IMG/VR virus record: IMGVR_UViG_2751185956_000002
Span: 1-12,399 of that record
DNA: 12,399 nt
Direction: 5' to 3' (one strand)
Source of the DNA: a virus
Taxonomy: Duplodnaviria > Heunggongvirae > Uroviricota > Caudoviricetes
The notes below the pieces were generated by a model. The model ran no database searches and was not told the origin of the DNA. It worked only from the letters and a program-made list of their open reading frames with translations. The position numbers and the translations under genes are program-made. This document shows, piece by piece, positions 1,075 to 6,394 of this stretch; within the stretch, counting starts at the first letter, position 1, and every line of letters begins with the position of its first letter.

Positions 1075-1332
1075 ATGCAGCAGTATCACTATCCACTGGA
1101 AGACGGATTTACCGAAAGGATTCACACGCCGGGAGGCGTCAGGTCACTGGTGGAGGGATCGCACTTGATGAAATTACTCCGGGATCTCGATAAGGATGGA
1201 TTTAATGTCGATGGCCCACTTGCCGAACTGACTGCACTGATTAACTACGTCACCAGCTCACAGATGTCTATGCAGGATCTGCAAACACATCTCGACTATT
1301 GTGCCGAACAATTACGAAAACAAACCAGATAA
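1075..1332 (+). CDS. Small protein (85 aa), stand-alone paralog of the antirepressor C-terminal domain
   Basis: ATG 1075 with GGAG 8 nt upstream. Preferred over the ORF-track start at 952, which has no RBS and would put palindrome A inside the coding sequence. Residues ~4-80 align with residues ~139-214 of the 218-aa antirepressor (shared H.P.GV..L.E.S.LM.LL..L..DG..V.G..AELT, then D.QTH..Y), roughly 40% identity by eye. Confidence 0.55.
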   Translation: MQQYHYPLEDGFTERIHTPGGVRSLVEGSHLMKLLRDLDKDGFNVDGPLAELTALINYVTSSQMSMQDLQTHLDYCAEQLRKQTR

Positions 1333-1649: not shown

Positions 1650-2306
1650 ATGAACGCTCAACTCATCCCCGTATTCAACGGCACTATATCTAACGAAACA
1701 GCCCTACTTTGTAATGCCCGCGATCTGCACGCTTTTTTAGGTGTTAAAAAGGTGTTTGCAGCATGGATTACAAATCGCATATCAGAATACGAATTCATTG
1801 AAAATCAAGACTATATTTTGCTTTCCAATTTGGGAAAGCAAACATCTGGTAGAGGCGGCCACAACCGCAAAGAGTACCACCTCACCCTTGATACAGCCAA
1901 AGAGCTGGCGATGGTCGAGCGTAACGAAAAAGGTCGTCAGGTACGACGCTACTTCATTGAATGCGAGAAACGTTTAAGACAACAAGAAACAAAAGTGGAG
2001 AAGGTCTTGTCAGGCTTCATGCCCGCCATTATGGAGGCGATCAAGCTGGAAGACAAAAAAGAATACAGTGCCCCGCTGAAGCCCGGCTACCGCAGCCTGA
2101 TTCATTCGCCGTCTGGTGTTCTCGGCCTGACGGAGAACTCACTGCTGATGAATCTGCTGAACCAGTTACAGGAAGACGGGCACGACGTATCGGGCGCGGC
2201 GGCGGAGCTGACCACCATGTTCTGCTACATCGTCGGTGTGAGCAAATGCCTGCGTGATATCCAGACGCACGCGGAGTACATCAACGACAAGGCAGGGTTC
2301 TTCTGA
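1650..2306 (+). CDS. Phage antirepressor, 218 aa (AntA-like N-terminal domain plus a C-terminal domain shared with the 85-aa ORF)
   Basis: ATG 1650 with GGAG 8 nt upstream; stop TGA 2304-2306. The N-terminal ~110 aa (LIPVFNG, then [76 protein letters not shown]) match my recollection of the AntA/AntB antirepressor family; not database-verified. Confidence 0.7.
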
Positions 2307-2314
2307 CGGGCGGT

Positions 2315-2341
2315 GGCACAGGGATGTGCCTTTAAATAATT
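2315..2341 (+). terminator. Weak terminator-like hairpin after the antirepressor gene
   Basis: Stem GGCACA / TGTGCC with loop GGGA (2315-2330), followed by the interrupted T/A-rich run TTTAAATAATT. Could equally be a processing or pause site. Confidence 0.25.
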
Positions 2342-2350
2342 CTGTACAGA

Positions 2351-2394
2351 TTGCAGACTGTGGGTGAATAGCGTACTATTACCTTAAAGGTAAA
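2351..2394 (+). promoter_or_regulatory. sigma70-like promoter (-35 TTGCAG 2351-2356, 17-bp spacer, -10 TACTAT 2374-2379) with operator-like palindrome C (ATTACC-TTAAA-GGTAAA, 2378-2394) over the start site
   Basis: Same architecture as promoter B: -35 TTGCAR, 17 bp, -10, with the palindrome starting inside the -10. The palindrome also abuts the Shine-Dalgarno sequence of the 55-aa ORF. Confidence 0.45.
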
Positions 2395-2405
2395 GGAGGC
2401 GCGAT

Positions 2406-2573
2406 ATGACAGCGTTGAAAAATCGTACTCAGCACAATGAACAAGCCAAGCAATGCTGGGATGTCATTGGAAAAGTTATGCTTGGCCGCGCAAGCAAAGA
2501 GCGCGACAAGGATATGGTTTACCAGACAGGAACATCTTTCAGCGACTTCAAGGCGGCATTTCGCTCCAAATAG
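2406..2573 (+). CDS. Small protein, 55 aa, function unknown (candidate regulator or partner of the downstream AT-rich gene)
   Basis: Not in the ORF track (too short). ATG 2406 is preceded by a near-consensus Shine-Dalgarno AAAGGAGG (2392-2399) with a 6-nt spacer; stop TAG 2571-2573. Translation MTALKNRTQHNEQAKQCWDVIGKVMLGRASKERDKDMVYQTGTSFSDFKAAFRSK. Confidence 0.45.
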   Translation: MTALKNRTQHNEQAKQCWDVIGKVMLGRASKERDKDMVYQTGTSFSDFKAAFRSK

Positions 2574-2593
2574 AAGCACATCAGGAGTTTTCC

Positions 2594-3034
2594 TTGAAGT
2601 TTAACATTAGAATATCTAATAGTTTTCTACATGGGGAAAGCAACACCCCTTTCGCTGTAGACGGACCTTTCCTTACTGATGATGAAATAAAAATCATACA
2701 AAGTTTTTTAGAGGATGTTGCCAATGGAAGGGCGCTTGTTGGAAAAAACAAGCCCTCGTGGGTTGATGATAACCATGATAAAATTCCCGGCTCAGACAAT
2801 TATGAGCAAGAGAATTATTGGCATTATCATTGTGGGCCAACATGGTATCCAAACACATTTAAGAATTATACCATTAACTTAAATTTCAACCCTGGCGGAA
2901 GGCATTCTAATGAATGCATTCATTATGCAAAAAATGATAATGAAATTGTCATTGTTGGATTTTCAAGAGAACACATACCTTTCCTTTCATCAGATGGAAA
3001 CAACAATCCGCTTTTTAATGATGAAGAAGAATAG
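2594..3034 (+). CDS. AT-rich moron protein, 146 aa if started at TTG 2594 (193 aa if ATG 2453 is used); His/Cys-rich C-terminal motif, function unknown
   Basis: The frame is open from 2453 to TAG 3032-3034, but the only in-frame ATG (2453) has no RBS and lies inside the 55-aa ORF in another frame. TTG 2594 is preceded by AGGAG (2583-2587) with a 6-nt spacer. Composition drops sharply to AT-rich from ~2590 to 3030. Contains WHYHCGPTWYPNTFKNYTINLNFNPGGRHSNECIHY. Confidence 0.5.
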   Translation: MKFNIRISNSFLHGESNTPFAVDGPFLTDDEIKIIQSFLEDVANGRALVGKNKPSWVDDNHDKIPGSDNYEQENYWHYHCGPTWYPNTFKNYTINLNFNPGGRHSNECIHYAKNDNEIVIVGFSREHIPFLSSDGNNNPLFNDEEE

Positions 3035-3056
3035 CCCGCGCTGCGGGCTTTTTTGT
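3033..3056 (+). terminator. Strong rho-independent terminator
   Basis: Perfect 7-bp GC-rich stem AGCCCGC / GCGGGCT with loop GCT, followed by TTTTTT, starting at the stop codon of the AT-rich gene. Confidence 0.75.
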
Positions 3057-3085
3057 GGACGAAACAAAAGTCAGTGCTACACTCA

Positions 3086-3113
3086 TTGACGCCACATTGA
3101 GGTGGCTTATAGA
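3086..3113 (+). promoter_or_regulatory. sigma70-like promoter candidate (-35 TTGACG 3086-3091, 16-bp spacer, -10 TATAGA 3108-3113)
   Basis: Hexamers read directly. It would give a very short leader before ATG 3127, so assignment to the downstream small ORF is tentative. Confidence 0.3.
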
Positions 3114-3126
3114 TGGAAATTTCACA

Positions 3127-3288
3127 ATGAAAAAAGCATTTGCTGCACTGTTCGTTTTGTTGTCTCTGGTAGCTTCAACTCAGGCCTTTGCCGGTCGTTG
3201 TCAGCACGACAGCGATACTGCCGCTGACGGCTCCCGCTGCGGTGGGCGTTCTGCGGATTCCCGCCCGGGTGGCGGTGGCATTCGTTAA
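3127..3288 (+). CDS. Small exported peptide precursor, 53 aa (signal peptide plus 31-aa Gly/Arg/Asp-rich mature peptide with two Cys)
   Basis: ATG 3127; stop TAA 3286-3288. The N-terminus MKKAFAALFVLLSLVASTQAFA is a textbook Sec signal peptide (basic n-region, hydrophobic core, AFA cleavage motif). Predicted mature peptide GRCQHDSDTAADGSRCGGRSADSRPGGGGIR. RBS is weak; the ORF-track GTG start at 3055 abuts the upstream terminator and is unlikely. Confidence 0.4.
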   Translation: MKKAFAALFVLLSLVASTQAFAGRCQHDSDTAADGSRCGGRSADSRPGGGGIR

Positions 3289-3311
3289 AAACAAGGCCGC
3301 GAAAGCGGCCT
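3283..3311 (-). terminator. Rho-independent terminator for the minus-strand operon (after the lipoprotein gene)
   Basis: Stem AGGCCGC / GCGGCCT with loop GAAA (3294-3311). On the minus strand it is followed by TGTTTTTAA (reverse complement of 3285-3293), 9 nt after the lipoprotein stop codon. Confidence 0.5.
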
Positions 3312-3319
3312 GTGACATG

Positions 3320-3700
3320 TCACGCAACGCAATTATTACCGCGCCATGTAACATTTTTAATAATCTTATCAGCACCAAACTCAACGTAAACAGAGCAACT
3401 GAAATGGAGTGTATAACCGCCATCAGTTGTTGCGTATGTGTTTGAATATATAGTATTACCAATTAGATTAGACGTAGTATTATACGTTGTGGTTTGTGGT
3501 ACGTTATAACTACCAGAGCTTGAGTAAACATACACTCTGTTTCCATCTGGAGATGTAAGCTCTCCCTGAGGATACCCCCACTGCTGAACCATTGCGTCTA
3601 TACTCTGCCCGCGCCACGTAAGCATATTTCTTTCAAACTGTGCAGCTGACTGGCATCCAACGAGAAGCATAAATCCAAAAATCAAAAATACTTTTCTCAT
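3320..3700 (-). CDS. Predicted outer-membrane lipoprotein, 126 aa (moron; candidate superinfection-exclusion or receptor-masking factor)
   Basis: ATG 3700-3698 with AGGGG 5 nt upstream; the ORF-track start (GTG 3736) is less likely. N-terminus MRKVFLIFGFMLLVGCQSAAQ gives a lipoprotein signal with lipobox LVGC and Gln at +2 (not Asp, so outer-membrane sorting is expected). AT-rich, unlike the neighbouring virion genes. Stop TGA 3322-3320. Confidence 0.7.
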   Translation of the reverse strand: MRKVFLIFGFMLLVGCQSAAQFERNMLTWRGQSIDAMVQQWGYPQGELTSPDGNRVYVYSSSGSYNVPQTTTYNTTSNLIGNTIYSNTYATTDGGYTLHFSCSVYVEFGADKIIKNVTWRGNNCVA

Positions 3701-3785
3701 AATTACCCCTATCATGGAAAAACAGCACCAATCCACAAATTAACTAGTTATTTTATTATTCTTCCGAACAATACAATTCCGAATA

Positions 3786-3908
3786 CTACAAAGCCGAACC
3801 ATGCCGCTGCACGCAACAGAGATTCCAATTGAAACCCATTTTTATCAAAATGTATGAATAGCATAAAAACGCTGCACATATTAGTACAATAAAAGTTATT
3901 TGAACCAT
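3786..3908 (-). CDS. Small hydrophobic membrane peptide, 40 aa (not in ORF track)
   Basis: ATG 3908-3906 preceded by AAGGAG (3919-3914) with a 5-nt spacer, directly after the stop of the 824-aa gene. Translation MVQITFIVLICAAFLCYSYILIKMGFNWNLCCVQRHGSAL: an N-terminal ~21-residue hydrophobic helix and a short Cys-rich tail. Stop TAG 3788-3786. Confidence 0.4.
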   Translation of the reverse strand: MVQITFIVLICAAFLCYSYILIKMGFNWNLCCVQRHGSAL

Positions 3909-3919
3909 CATATCTCCTT

Positions 3920-6394
3920 TTATTGCGGAGTGACATCCTGTGGTCGCCACCAGTATGTCTGGTTAAACTCTTTCTTCGAACGTTGCTCCATTTTACGCAA
4001 ATAGCCTGGTGAAAAATACTCCTGCATCTGGTTAAAGATCATGTGATCGAGAGCCGCCTTCAAGTACCAGAGATTCGCACCAGGCATCAAACCTTTCCCC
4101 AGCTTCACCAGATCACCACCAGTCTGCTCACTCTTCCCTTCCACAGCATTTAACGGTATGCCCTGAGCAATCTTCACTACGTCATCAACCAGACCAGCTA
4201 CCGGGCCAAGCATCGACGCCAGCGCGCCGCTTCCGTACCTAGTGTGATCTGACAATAAAAAGTCACCGTAAAGGCCAAGACCACCACCTTTCAGTAGAGC
4301 ACCAAGCCAGAATTTTGCGGCATCTTCTCCTGTCATCTCTCGAGGATTACGACCAGACGCAAGGTCGTTAAGTTGCTGCGACAAAGCGCCAAGAATGGTC
4401 GTACTGGCAATAAACGTCGCAATATATGCCGCACGCCCACCAGCAGACGGCATACCCATAGCGCGTGACCAGTGACGCATAACAACCGAGATAGGGAACG
4501 ATTTAAACAGGAAAACACTTCTCGTTAATTCACCTTTCCATGTTCCACGCTGAATACCAGAACCGGTTATCAGTTGCTCACGTGCTCCCGGTGTAATAAC
4601 AGCCATATCAACTTCTTCAGTTACGGCACCGAGCAGTTTACGCATTGCCTCAAATTTCACGCGTTCAGGCTCACCAAGATGTTTAACTGCTGAATCAGGG
4701 ATACGCATAATGCTTTCCGGTGTCAGCATCGTATTATTACCGTTCCCCCAGTCCTCCTGTTTCGCCAGCTTCCATACGCTCCAGTCTGTGTCAGTAATCC
4801 CTTTGCTTTTCAGGATACGAAAATCAGAGTCATCGAGGCTACGAAGGTCTGGTGTCCGTGACACTACTTCTCCCAGGCTTCCCATCATGGTTACGCCATA
4901 GGCGCGCTTGTGCGCATCTGACCATGCTGTAAGCCCACTGGCACGCATTACCGCCGTTGCCGCCCAACGAGACACTGACGGCCCCATATTATCCATCGCC
5001 CAGCGGTTAACGCTGCCAAGTAGAGATTCCATCGCCAGACCAGCGCGGCGCGCCCGCGCAAGTTCTGTACGGTTCGTTGGGTCCATAGCTTCAAGCTGGT
5101 TGCGGAATAACTGGTTCATTGGAAGGTTGGTAACCTTCGCAGACAGATACATGGTTCCAAGATCAGAGAACGATGACAGCAACGCGGATCCGAGTCTGCT
5201 GGCAACCAGCCAGTTGCGGATATTGTCAGACCATCGCGCGATGTGCGGATTCGCTACAGGCTGTGTCTTTCCGGAAATAAAGTTGTACAGATTCTCTGTG
5301 TTGTTCGCCAGCCGCTCGACTTTACCGGTTTTACTCGGGTTAGCTGTTGCCGTTTCTGCCTTCACCTGATCAAGAAGAGAGCGGAAAACATGATCGGGGT
5401 TTGGGCCATATGTTTCCACCAGTGCAATATCTTTACTGATACCTTCCAGGTGACAGACCATGATTTCCCATAGAGAGCGATCGCCATAAAGTTGCTGATA
5501 TTGCAGATAGGAATCTGCATCTTTGAAATGTATCTGTCGTGATGCATTACCACGGTTAGCACGTGCGCCGGAAATTCGCATTCCGGTATCAGTAAGCTTA
5601 TTCAGCCCACCAGTAGCGATCGTGTTATAAGCCTCTCCAAGAAATGAAGACAACTCGGCATCGTTCATCAGTTGTCCATCGGCTCGGATATAATATTTGC
5701 GATCCAGCTTACCTATAACATCGCTAACCCACTTATCCTTTGATACTGCCCCAACCTTTTCCATAGAATGATGTTGAGGGATCCCCCAGTTTTCGAGATA
5801 GCCAATGTCCCCACCAGCATCATTAAACCGGCGGCGCAGCAGCTCTGTAACTTCTCTCCACGCCTTAGCACCGTTTCTTGCTTTAGCATTGCCAGTATTT
5901 TGCCCCCGCATTTCATATACCAGGTCACGTACGCCCGCTTCATCTTCAAACAGACCAAAAAAGCGAGGATCAACTGCTTCGAATGCCTCCTGCAATTGAC
6001 TCAATGCATAATCACGGGTGGCTTTTGTTCTGGATTCAACAGAGAGGAAATTAGATTTACCGTCTGCATTAAAAGCTATAGTACGGTTAAGAGCGCCAAG
6101 TTTCCCATCAGCCCCTTGATAGCTATTGATAAATTTATCCAATCTCTGACGCGCGGCTATAGTGAGAGCCACACGACGTTTATTTAATGCCGCTTCTCGC
6201 TGTAATTCTTCAGATGCCAATTGTGCTGCTCGATATAGCCGCTCTGATTCGGAAAGTTGTCGCCACGACATAGTGTCATCACGAGCAATGGAGCGCATAT
6301 TTCGATAAATGCGGTCTTCAATGTTCTGTATTTCTCGCGCCGTTAACATGCGCTGCGCCGCCTGCTGAACCGCTTGTATACATTCCTGTCTCAT
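3920..6394 (-). CDS. Large virion internal-core / DNA-ejection-type protein, 824 aa
   Basis: Uninterrupted ORF; ATG 6394-6392 with a GAGG-containing RBS; stop TAA 3922-3920. Third of three consecutive large proteins (837, 600, 824 aa) between small virion genes and the tailspike, the arrangement typical of podophage ejection/core proteins. Function is inferred from size, order and context only. Confidence 0.75.
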   Translation of the reverse strand: MRQECIQAVQQAAQRMLTAREIQNIEDRIYRNMRSIARDDTMSWRQLSESERLYRAAQLASEELQREAALNKRRVALTIAARQRLDKFINSYQGADGKLGALNRTIAFNADGKSNFLSVESRTKATRDYALSQLQEAFEAVDPRFFGLFEDEAGVRDLVYEMRGQNTGNAKARNGAKAWREVTELLRRRFNDAGGDIGYLENWGIPQHHSMEKVGAVSKDKWVSDVIGKLDRKYYIRADGQLMNDAELSSFLGEAYNTIATGGLNKLTDTGMRISGARANRGNASRQIHFKDADSYLQYQQLYGDRSLWEIMVCHLEGISKDIALVETYGPNPDHVFRSLLDQVKAETATANPSKTGKVERLANNTENLYNFISGKTQPVANPHIARWSDNIRNWLVASRLGSALLSSFSDLGTMYLSAKVTNLPMNQLFRNQLEAMDPTNRTELARARRAGLAMESLLGSVNRWAMDNMGPSVSRWAATAVMRASGLTAWSDAHKRAYGVTMMGSLGEVVSRTPDLRSLDDSDFRILKSKGITDTDWSVWKLAKQEDWGNGNNTMLTPESIMRIPDSAVKHLGEPERVKFEAMRKLLGAVTEEVDMAVITPGAREQLITGSGIQRGTWKGELTRSVFLFKSFPISVVMRHWSRAMGMPSAGGRAAYIATFIASTTILGALSQQLNDLASGRNPREMTGEDAAKFWLGALLKGGGLGLYGDFLLSDHTRYGSGALASMLGPVAGLVDDVVKIAQGIPLNAVEGKSEQTGGDLVKLGKGLMPGANLWYLKAALDHMIFNQMQEYFSPGYLRKMEQRSKKEFNQTYWWRPQDVTPQ

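Follow-up and report, generated by a model that had tools for sequence, protein, structure and literature searches.

Toxins of the RelE/ParE fold accompanied by a small partner are known as cargo of mobile elements, and temperate phages and their satellites possess variable cargo hotspots, of which the P2/P4 defence hotspots are an example. Antitoxins are usually built of a conserved C-terminal module to which variable N-terminal extensions are joined; in the PaaA2–ParE2 system of the prophages of Escherichia coli O157 the antitoxin is short and devoid of a DNA-binding domain, regulation being left to a separate protein. Thirteen Pfam families of BECR-fold toxins have been distinguished, among them YafO, with the antitoxin gene placed first (Gerdes 2025, PMC11980606). 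The present analysis concerns two adjacent genes, encoding a basic protein of 55 and an acidic protein of 146 residues, which together with a promoter, an operator and a terminator occupy positions 2351–3056 of a window of 12,399 nucleotides of viral DNA (Caudoviricetes; IMG/VR record IMGVR_UViG_2751185956_000002). Positions 2300–3100 of the window display 100% identity with Escherichia phage phiv142-3 (MN187550; genus Uetakevirus, epsilon15-like) and 97% with phage HEMP4.

The two open reading frames (ORFs) are best explained as an obligately linked, type II toxin–antitoxin-like module whose larger product, a divergent protein of the RelE/ParE (BECR) fold, is the putative toxin, an explanation in which we place somewhat more confidence than doubt. 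As far as its modelled structure indicates, the 146-residue protein is the probable founder of a new RelE-fold toxin–antitoxin-like family, its toxicity being putative.

The predicted fold of the larger protein and its conserved partner

The AlphaFold (AF2) model of the 146-residue protein, built from 26 sequences (pLDDT 92.5, pTM 0.87), displays N-terminal helices lying on an antiparallel β-sheet, a predicted fold that is superimposable on the solved structures of RelE, YoeB, YafQ, HigB or ParE. When the structures of the PDB are ranked by Foldseek, the RelE-type group is found on top and the matches of ParE type score below those of RNase type; the match list includes 5czf, which we take to be PaaA2–ParE2. 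No match was returned by Foldseek from the viral structures of BFVD. Of the checks proposed in an earlier, sequence-only reading of this DNA, structure prediction gave a RelE/ParE fold and profile searches gave no family: the protein matches nothing in Pfam (E up to 10), NCBIfam or PADLOC and falls in PHROGs within a family of unknown function, a sequence profile search of the PDB produced chance matches only, and none of 103 family members matches any Pfam family, the 13 BECR toxin families included (E up to 0.01). The opinion of that reading that no named family applies therefore holds for Pfam, NCBIfam and PADLOC.

Homologues were collected both by a word-indexed search, yielding 34 clusters (Enterobacterales and Pasteurellaceae), and by a full profile search, yielding 122 clusters at 50% identity, and conservation was scored over 103 family sequences. 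His77, His79 and His127 are invariant, Asn52, Lys53, Ser55, Tyr78 and Tyr111 are conserved in at least 90% of the sequences, and His110 is near-invariant. By our own reading of the predicted strands, the His residues are situated on the core strands or just beyond the last one; comparable positions are taken by the catalytic histidines of YafQ and YoeB, and the conserved His/Tyr/Lys/Asn set points to catalysis, as far as can be judged from residue conservation. Some distant members possess an N-terminal Cys-rich (zinc-ribbon-like) extension of 60–95 residues or a C-terminal extension of ~100 residues; these proteins apparently come from organisms of low guanine-plus-cytosine (GC) content and the partner module is present in none of them. 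Fused partner–effector proteins were sought among the distant family members and none was found.

The conservation pattern also bears on the identity which the sequence-only reading had suggested for the larger protein: a DNA nuclease of the His-Me finger (HNH) type, of which the spacing of the motif WHYH-x15-N-x8-H-x5-H was reminiscent, or alternatively a protein with a structural zinc site. The motif is present at residues 76–110, and the protein does have spaced His and Asn residues as well as two Cys; however, only H77, H79 and H110 of the motif are conserved, N95 and H104 are not, and the invariant H127 lies outside it. As to a zinc site, for which four conserved Cys or His ligands would be expected, Cys80 is kept without exception by close relatives alone, distant members having lost it, and Cys108 is variable, so that neither cysteine is conserved family-wide, and the three invariant His residues are the sole invariant candidates. 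Furthermore, neither an HNH nuclease nor a zinc protein appears among the structure matches listed. Contradicted by both fold and conservation, the nuclease and the zinc site were rejected, and we regard this explanation as extremely improbable.

The gene of the smaller protein (2406–2573, plus strand) starts with an ATG at 2406, 6 nucleotides downstream of a Shine–Dalgarno (SD) sequence, AAGGAGG, read at 2393–2399. Its basic product (pI 9.8), the putative antitoxin, has close homologues only in the Enterobacteriaceae, matches phrog_8607, a PHROGs family of unknown function, and finds no match in Pfam (E up to 10), NCBIfam or PADLOC. What is shared by all lineages is a module made of the C-terminal 45–50 residues, W-D-x-I-G-K-V-I-L-G-R … Y-x-x-G-M-S-x-x-D-F-x-A-A, which lies directly upstream of the large gene in every homologue examined. 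In the Enterobacterales-type loci the partner holds this position in 50 cases out of 50 (jackhmmer E 1e-14 to 1e-34), separated from the large gene by a gap of at most 31 nucleotides or overlapping it over a short stretch. The module occurs as a protein of 55–65 residues, as the C-terminus of proteins of 92–121 residues in lambdoid prophages of the Klebsiella type, and as the C-terminus of proteins of 159–211 residues in the Pasteurellaceae and Neisseriaceae, where the upstream ORF ends 1–9 nucleotides before the large gene; the alignment of the Pasteurellaceae-type module with the partner profile covers 51 columns in end-to-end register (hhalign P 1.1e-4). The 55-residue version thus corresponds approximately to the bare module, to which the other lineages add varied N-terminal extensions of 40–150 residues. 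Pfam recognises no domain, DNA-binding or other, in the 55-residue protein or in ten diverse partner homologues.

The larger gene (2594–3034, plus strand) begins with TTG (2594–2596), 6 nucleotides after an SD sequence AGGAG read at 2583–2587, and a TTG or GTG start is kept at the same position in Enterobacterales homologues down to ~55% identity. A longer reading of 193 residues from the in-frame ATG at 2453 was ruled out, since homologues have a stop codon in that extension. The abrupt change to an AT-rich composition attributed to the whole unit concerns the larger gene, the GC content of which is 35.6% (30.6% at third codon positions) against 48.2% for the window, and does not extend to the 55-residue ORF, with 47%. 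In the comparison with homologues of ~75% identity the substitutions at codon positions 1/2/3 are 26/12/71 in the larger and 8/8/24 in the smaller frame, and this excess at the third position indicates that both ORFs are real coding genes.

The gene model has consequences for a published virulence determinant. The ORF of 146 residues is unannotated in the GenBank record of phiv142-3, which instead has an “orf10” of 52 residues (QGF19616.1; 2724–2882, plus strand) placed out of frame within it. This frame was rejected as spurious, since it is interrupted by stop codons in homologues of 75% identity or less and since the codon-position pattern favors the frame of 146 residues. In the original report, deletion of orf10 in avian pathogenic E. 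coli reduced growth and survival in chicken serum and left growth in LB normal, and the orf10 transcripts, which rose 2^4.12-fold in serum, were among the most up-regulated of the prophage genes, most of which rose (PMC7724020). The published recombineering arms map to 2664–2723 and 2883–2942, and from these positions it follows that the mutant lacks codons 44–97 of the 146-residue gene, including its two most conserved motifs. It is thus this gene that the Δorf10 mutation interrupts; since orf10 is mis-called, the phenotype belongs to, or needs to be re-tested against, the gene of the RelE-fold protein.

Phage control signals and the cargo slot

Promoter, operator, both ORFs with the SD sequence of the first, the His-rich motif and the terminator were all found where the sequence-only reading had placed them; what did not survive is the view that they form a self-contained cassette, because the promoter, the operator and the terminator are conserved phage backbone, common to phages with other cargo. 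The promoter-like element read at 2351–2379 (plus strand) consists of a −35 hexamer TTGCAG (2351–2356), a spacer of 17 nucleotides and a −10 hexamer TACTAT (2374–2379); with 7 of 12 consensus matches its hexamers are weak and the element is absent from the output of the promoter scan. Its geometry is that of a promoter with 9 of 12 matches, TTGCAA-17-TATATT, found at another copy of the operator (site B), and it is identical in phage TL-2011b despite the different cargo of the latter.

The operator, a 15-bp palindrome TTACCTTAAAGGTAA at 2379–2393 (site C), overlaps the final base of the −10 hexamer. The palindrome is present in the window in three copies (984–998, 1364–1378 and 2379–2393), pattern matches numbering 13 against 2.2 expected, and its consensus TTACC-N5-GGTAA recurs at 15 sites of the phiv142-3 genome, where 0.71 would be expected, occupying ~11 intergenic control regions. 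Most of the intergenic control regions of the phage possess it; two sites are placed on each side of the gene of a CI-like repressor, and others are found upstream of the small RNAs and of the antirepressor gene ant, upstream of the terminase genes and beside the integrase gene; in TL-2011b the arms of the palindrome are retained and the spacer differs. The CI-like repressor of the prophage is presumably the protein that binds TTACC-N5-GGTAA, in which case the pair would be derepressed along with ant, as fits the rise in serum of most prophage genes, and strongly of those in this region, described in the published study (PMC7724020).

The intrinsic terminator detected by the terminator scan (3033–3055, plus strand) is a stem-loop, AGCCCGC-GCT-GCGGGCT, followed by TTTTTT, whose stem (3033–3049) has 7 bp, 6 of them G–C pairs; it belongs to the backbone conserved in TL-2011b, ZX5 and EC.W1-9. 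The stems are the same in the window and in TL-2011b, and the loops of 3 nucleotides (3040–3042), GCT in the former and AGC in the latter, are the reverse complement of each other, as if the tip of the hairpin had been inverted.

The alignment with TL-2011b defines the slot: identity between the two phages extends as far as the palindrome and resumes at the stop codon and terminator, the ORFs alone being exchanged. The slot, with its flanks at 2280–2395 and 3030–3290, lies between ant and a gene for a protein of 53 residues. Of 5426 complete E. coli genomes, 502 (~9%) contain part or the whole of the slot region; the pair analysed here fills it in 76–77 of these 502, i.e., in ~1.4% of the complete genomes, always on the chromosome and under the annotation “hypothetical protein”. 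In ZX5 and EC.W1-9 the cargo consists of an ORF of 108 residues and a DUF2335 membrane protein of 167 residues, neither related in sequence to the pair, and elsewhere the slot is occupied by a YafO-family pair, by a DUF4760 protein or by a hypothetical protein of 210 residues; none of the alternative cargoes tested matches PADLOC. That the pair sits in a prophage accessory slot, as had been proposed, is borne out by these alignments, which make it exchangeable cargo.

Beyond the Uetakevirus prophages, where it is located downstream of ant, the pair was found in several other settings. In lambdoid prophages of Klebsiella it lies in the nin region, in P2-like prophages of Haemophilus it is inserted between the genes of the tape measure and those of the baseplate, in an element of the Pasteurellaceae it comes after a polyvalent MuF protein, and in Erwinia it stands alone, as a two-gene island flanked by accA and mtnA. 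Plasmids carry it as well, 37 in number; the four inspected (NZ_CP032420.1, NZ_OU659205.1, NZ_MG212498.1 and NZ_CP115364.1, from E. coli, Providencia and Edwardsiella), which measure only 2.7–3.6 kb, have the pair as their main cargo apart from the replication gene and few other annotated genes, and in three of the four the partner ORF has been left out of the PLSDB gene table. A contig of Aeromonas salmonicida ATCC 33658 (2799–4598) encodes a pair of 71 and 154 residues overlapping by 35 nucleotides, followed after a 4-nucleotide overlap by an AbiTii-domain protein of 385 residues and preceded by an NYN-domain protein; AbiTii is the only neighbour, of a single homologue, that matches a PADLOC model, and the Aeromonas pair and AbiTii may constitute a three-gene defence operon. 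Altogether, the distribution of the pair is typical of addiction or defence modules.

As to the surroundings of the slot in the window, the order on the plus strand is, after the end of a tail-fibre gene located on the minus strand, an ORF of 85 residues, two small RNAs, the antirepressor gene, the pair and the 53-residue ORF, and next to these, on the minus strand, come the large virion genes. The antirepressor, encoded by ant (1650–2306, plus strand), is of the AntA/Bro type. Between operator site B and this gene are situated matches to the Hfq-binding small RNA isrK (1415–1491) and to the antisense RNA C4 (1516–1600), both on the plus strand and both above the Rfam gathering score (67.7 and 61.2 bits, respectively), a placement that suggests control of ant by an antisense or small RNA, of the type of c4 in P1/P7 and of IsrK in Gifsy. 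The 85-residue ORF (1075–1332, plus strand) matches the last 74 residues of the antirepressor with 42% identity (E 3e-16) and is a free-standing copy of the C-terminal domain of that protein, placed behind a palindrome of its own (site A). The conserved 53-residue ORF (3127–3288, plus strand), just past the terminator, encodes a protein with a Gly/Cys-rich tail and with an N-terminus, MKKAFAALFVLLSLVASTQAFA, that resembles a signal peptide, and has no Pfam match; in other records it is labelled “transmembrane anchored protein”, and a terminator-like hairpin follows it on the opposite strand.

Possible functions of the pair

In the mechanism that we envisage for a toxin–antitoxin-like module, the 146-residue protein would be an endoribonuclease using His77, His79 and His127 with His110, Tyr111, Asn52 and Lys53, and the basic protein of 55 residues would bind and neutralise it. 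If the partner has no DNA-binding domain, how could the expression of the pair be controlled? None would be needed, because promoter, operator and terminator are supplied by the phage slot: transcription would be provided by the phage and not by the pair, with the backbone promoter driving and the backbone terminator closing the unit, and with the phage-wide operator, to which the CI-like prophage repressor is presumed to bind, covering the −10/+1 region. The combination of a weak TTG/GTG start in the large gene with a strong SD and ATG in that of the partner would keep the latter in excess, and the role of the pair, as exchangeable cargo downstream of the antirepressor gene, may be plasmid or prophage addiction or phage defence. 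An effector preceded by a small partner, as in toxin–antitoxin or defence modules, which the sequence-only reading had anticipated, is consistent with the predicted fold, the conserved partner, the tiny plasmids and the YafO-family pair in the slot of TL-2011b; furthermore, normal growth of the Δorf10 mutant in LB (PMC7724020) is the expected outcome for the loss of a toxin.

Several points weigh against this explanation. No sequence profile ties the 146-residue protein to any of the 13 Pfam families of BECR toxins, its hhalign similarity to YafO falls short of significance (P 0.019, probability 2.5%), and no antitoxin domain is recognisable by Pfam in the 55-residue protein or in ten diverse partner homologues. 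Of the two proteins the large one is acidic (pI 4.9, net charge −11), as are 74% of the family members (pI below 7), and its partner is basic (pI 9.8), the reverse of the situation in RelE/RelB, where RelE itself has a pI of 9.7; such a charge is unexpected for a protein docking on ribosomal RNA. The operator suggests expression upon derepression and not steady expression in the lysogen, and the loss of fitness in serum of the deletion mutant (PMC7724020) is not predicted by a simple selfish addiction module. In view of the acidic charge of the large protein, the missing sequence link to a curated family and the fitness cost in serum, four rival explanations, including the nuclease or zinc protein discussed above, are kept open.

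An unlikely possibility is that the pair serves the phage cycle, as part of an early gene set expressed upon release of the repressor, its RelE-fold enzyme acting on host or competitor RNA for takeover or exclusion and its small protein being a chaperone, a timer or a specificity subunit. The overlap of the operator with the −10/+1 region of the promoter and the marking by the same motif of ~11 control regions, among them the repressor flanks and the antirepressor promoter, speak for such a role, as do the 2^4.12-fold rise of the region along with most prophage genes in serum (PMC7724020) and the stable residence of the pair in tail or head modules of Haemophilus and other Pasteurellaceae elements. 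Nevertheless, the tiny plasmids and the phage-free chromosomal island require a phage-independent role and the binder of the operator is a presumed one; the chemistry would in any case be compatible with that of a toxin, the difference concerning the biological role alone. We consider it likewise rather unlikely that the 146-residue protein has lost its toxicity to become a lysogenic-conversion factor which modulates host expression, e.g., of the K1 capsule genes, and thereby improves survival in serum. In favor of such a factor, the published Δorf10 disrupts the 146-residue gene and complementation is reported (PMC7724020); the effects described there are, however, modest, the complementing insert is unspecified in the sections consulted and the gene model is wrong. 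Moreover, the invariance of the His/Tyr/Lys/Asn set in 103 sequences speaks for catalysis, neither the strict pairing with a small partner nor the presence on minimal plasmids of species without a K1 capsule would be explained, and an RNase of the toxin type could equally cause such changes of expression.

The charges of the two proteins, opposite in pattern to those of RelE/RelB, also raise the question of whether the polarity of the module might be reversed, the basic 55-residue protein being harmful and the acidic RelE-fold protein its neutraliser. In favor of such a reversal, disruption of the larger gene hurt growth in serum, where the operon was ~17-fold induced, and not in LB (PMC7724020). 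Yet the RelE/ParE fold is that of the toxin in the solved systems and the conserved His, Tyr and Lys look catalytic; a neutraliser is expected in excess, whereas the large gene comes second and has a conserved weak TTG; and it is the small module that is appended to varied extensions of 40–150 residues, as is typical of antitoxins. Reversed polarity is, for these reasons, quite improbable.

Returning to the toxin–antitoxin-like module, a more far-reaching proposal can be made, which is tentative and to our minds possible rather than probable, namely that the protein represents a fourteenth family of BECR/RelE-fold effectors, in which an acidic His-rich enzyme is coupled to a basic mini-partner devoid of a DNA-binding domain and expression has been handed over to the host element, in the present case to the network of repressor and operators that the prophage itself possesses. 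Such an effector would differ from the classical mRNA interferases that dock on the ribosome; derepression of the prophage or loss of the carrier plasmid would set it off, it would have a different RNA target, and it would be the real agent of the “orf10” phenotype of serum resistance and virulence.

Be that as it may, a pair hitherto annotated only as “hypothetical”, with homologues in many prophages of the Enterobacterales and Pasteurellaceae and on small plasmids, gains a testable function and a gene model, and the model of phiv142-3 “orf10”, a published virulence determinant that is a mis-called out-of-frame ORF, is corrected. The RelE/ParE superfamily would gain a family missed by current profile libraries, along with a new partner module. 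Finally, a hypervariable cargo slot is defined in epsilon15-like prophages, the cargo of which is driven by the operator-controlled promoter of the phage, and this slot is a convenient place in which to seek further toxin or defence genes.

Relation to YafO, PaaA2–ParE2 and phage cargo hotspots

The curated BECR families against which the protein was tested are RelE, ParE, YoeB, HigB, HigB-like, MqsR, YafQ, YafO, YhaV, BrnT, gp49, DUF4258 and ParE-like. Compared with the RelE/ParE superfamily, the 146-residue protein is ~55 residues longer than is typical, being extended at its N-terminus and having ~28 residues inserted between two strands of the core; no Pfam or NCBIfam model matches it; it is acidic whereas RelE is basic; and its partner is a new module of 45–50 residues without a known antitoxin or DNA-binding domain. 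Among the traits of type II toxin–antitoxin modules, the presence of two adjacent, co-oriented genes kept together across replicons is observed here, whereas an antitoxin with a DNA-binding domain and autoregulation of the operon are not, the operator being common to phages with other cargo. Neither protein matches a defence-system model of PADLOC-DB v2.0.0 (E up to 10), and a search of the literature for studies of toxin–antitoxin systems in Uetakevirus returned nothing relevant. While a toxin of this fold with a small partner is familiar as mobile cargo, the libraries and literature searched contain no description of the family, of its partner, of the inverted charges or of a control that is left to a phage-wide operator.

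In layout, the nearest named relative is YafO. The slot of TL-2011b, defined by exactly the same promoter–operator and terminator, holds an ORF of 59 residues (gp45) without recognisable domain followed by a YafO-family toxin of 181 residues (gp44; PF13957, E 8e-6, above the threshold of the Pfam model); YafO (PF13957) and the 146-residue protein are of similar size class (132–181 residues), and a short ORF lies upstream both in TL-2011b and here, the two partners, of 59 and 55 residues, being unrelated. YafN, for its part, belongs to the Phd/YefM type, and no Phd/YefM-type domain was detected in the 55-residue partner. The alignment of the family with YafO, made by hhalign and also seen by eye, extends over 93 columns in one register, pairing LTxxE with LTxxE, GKNKPSW with FGRDALY, WHYH with AHIH, IHY with HLVY and SxxH with KPxxH, a His being aligned three to four residues past the last strand; with a narrower profile P rises from 0.019 to 0.077. 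BLASTP and hhalign comparisons of the family with E. coli YafO and gp44 gave nothing significant, and the 146-residue protein does not match PF13957 at E up to 10, the controls, E. coli YafO and gp44, scoring 1.5e-39 and 8e-6, respectively; an AF2 model of YafO intended for comparison of the folds (pLDDT 49) was set aside. Since the alignment scores are not significant, membership in the YafO family is not claimed.

PaaA2–ParE2 resembles the pair in the shortness of an antitoxin without DNA-binding domain; the two differ in that control is exerted here by a phage-wide operator and not by a dedicated third gene, and they have no sequence similarity. Like the P2/P4 hotspots, the slot presents conserved flanks around alternative cargoes of one or two genes; unlike them, none of its tested cargoes matches PADLOC and the cargo makes use of the promoter, operator and terminator of the phage backbone.

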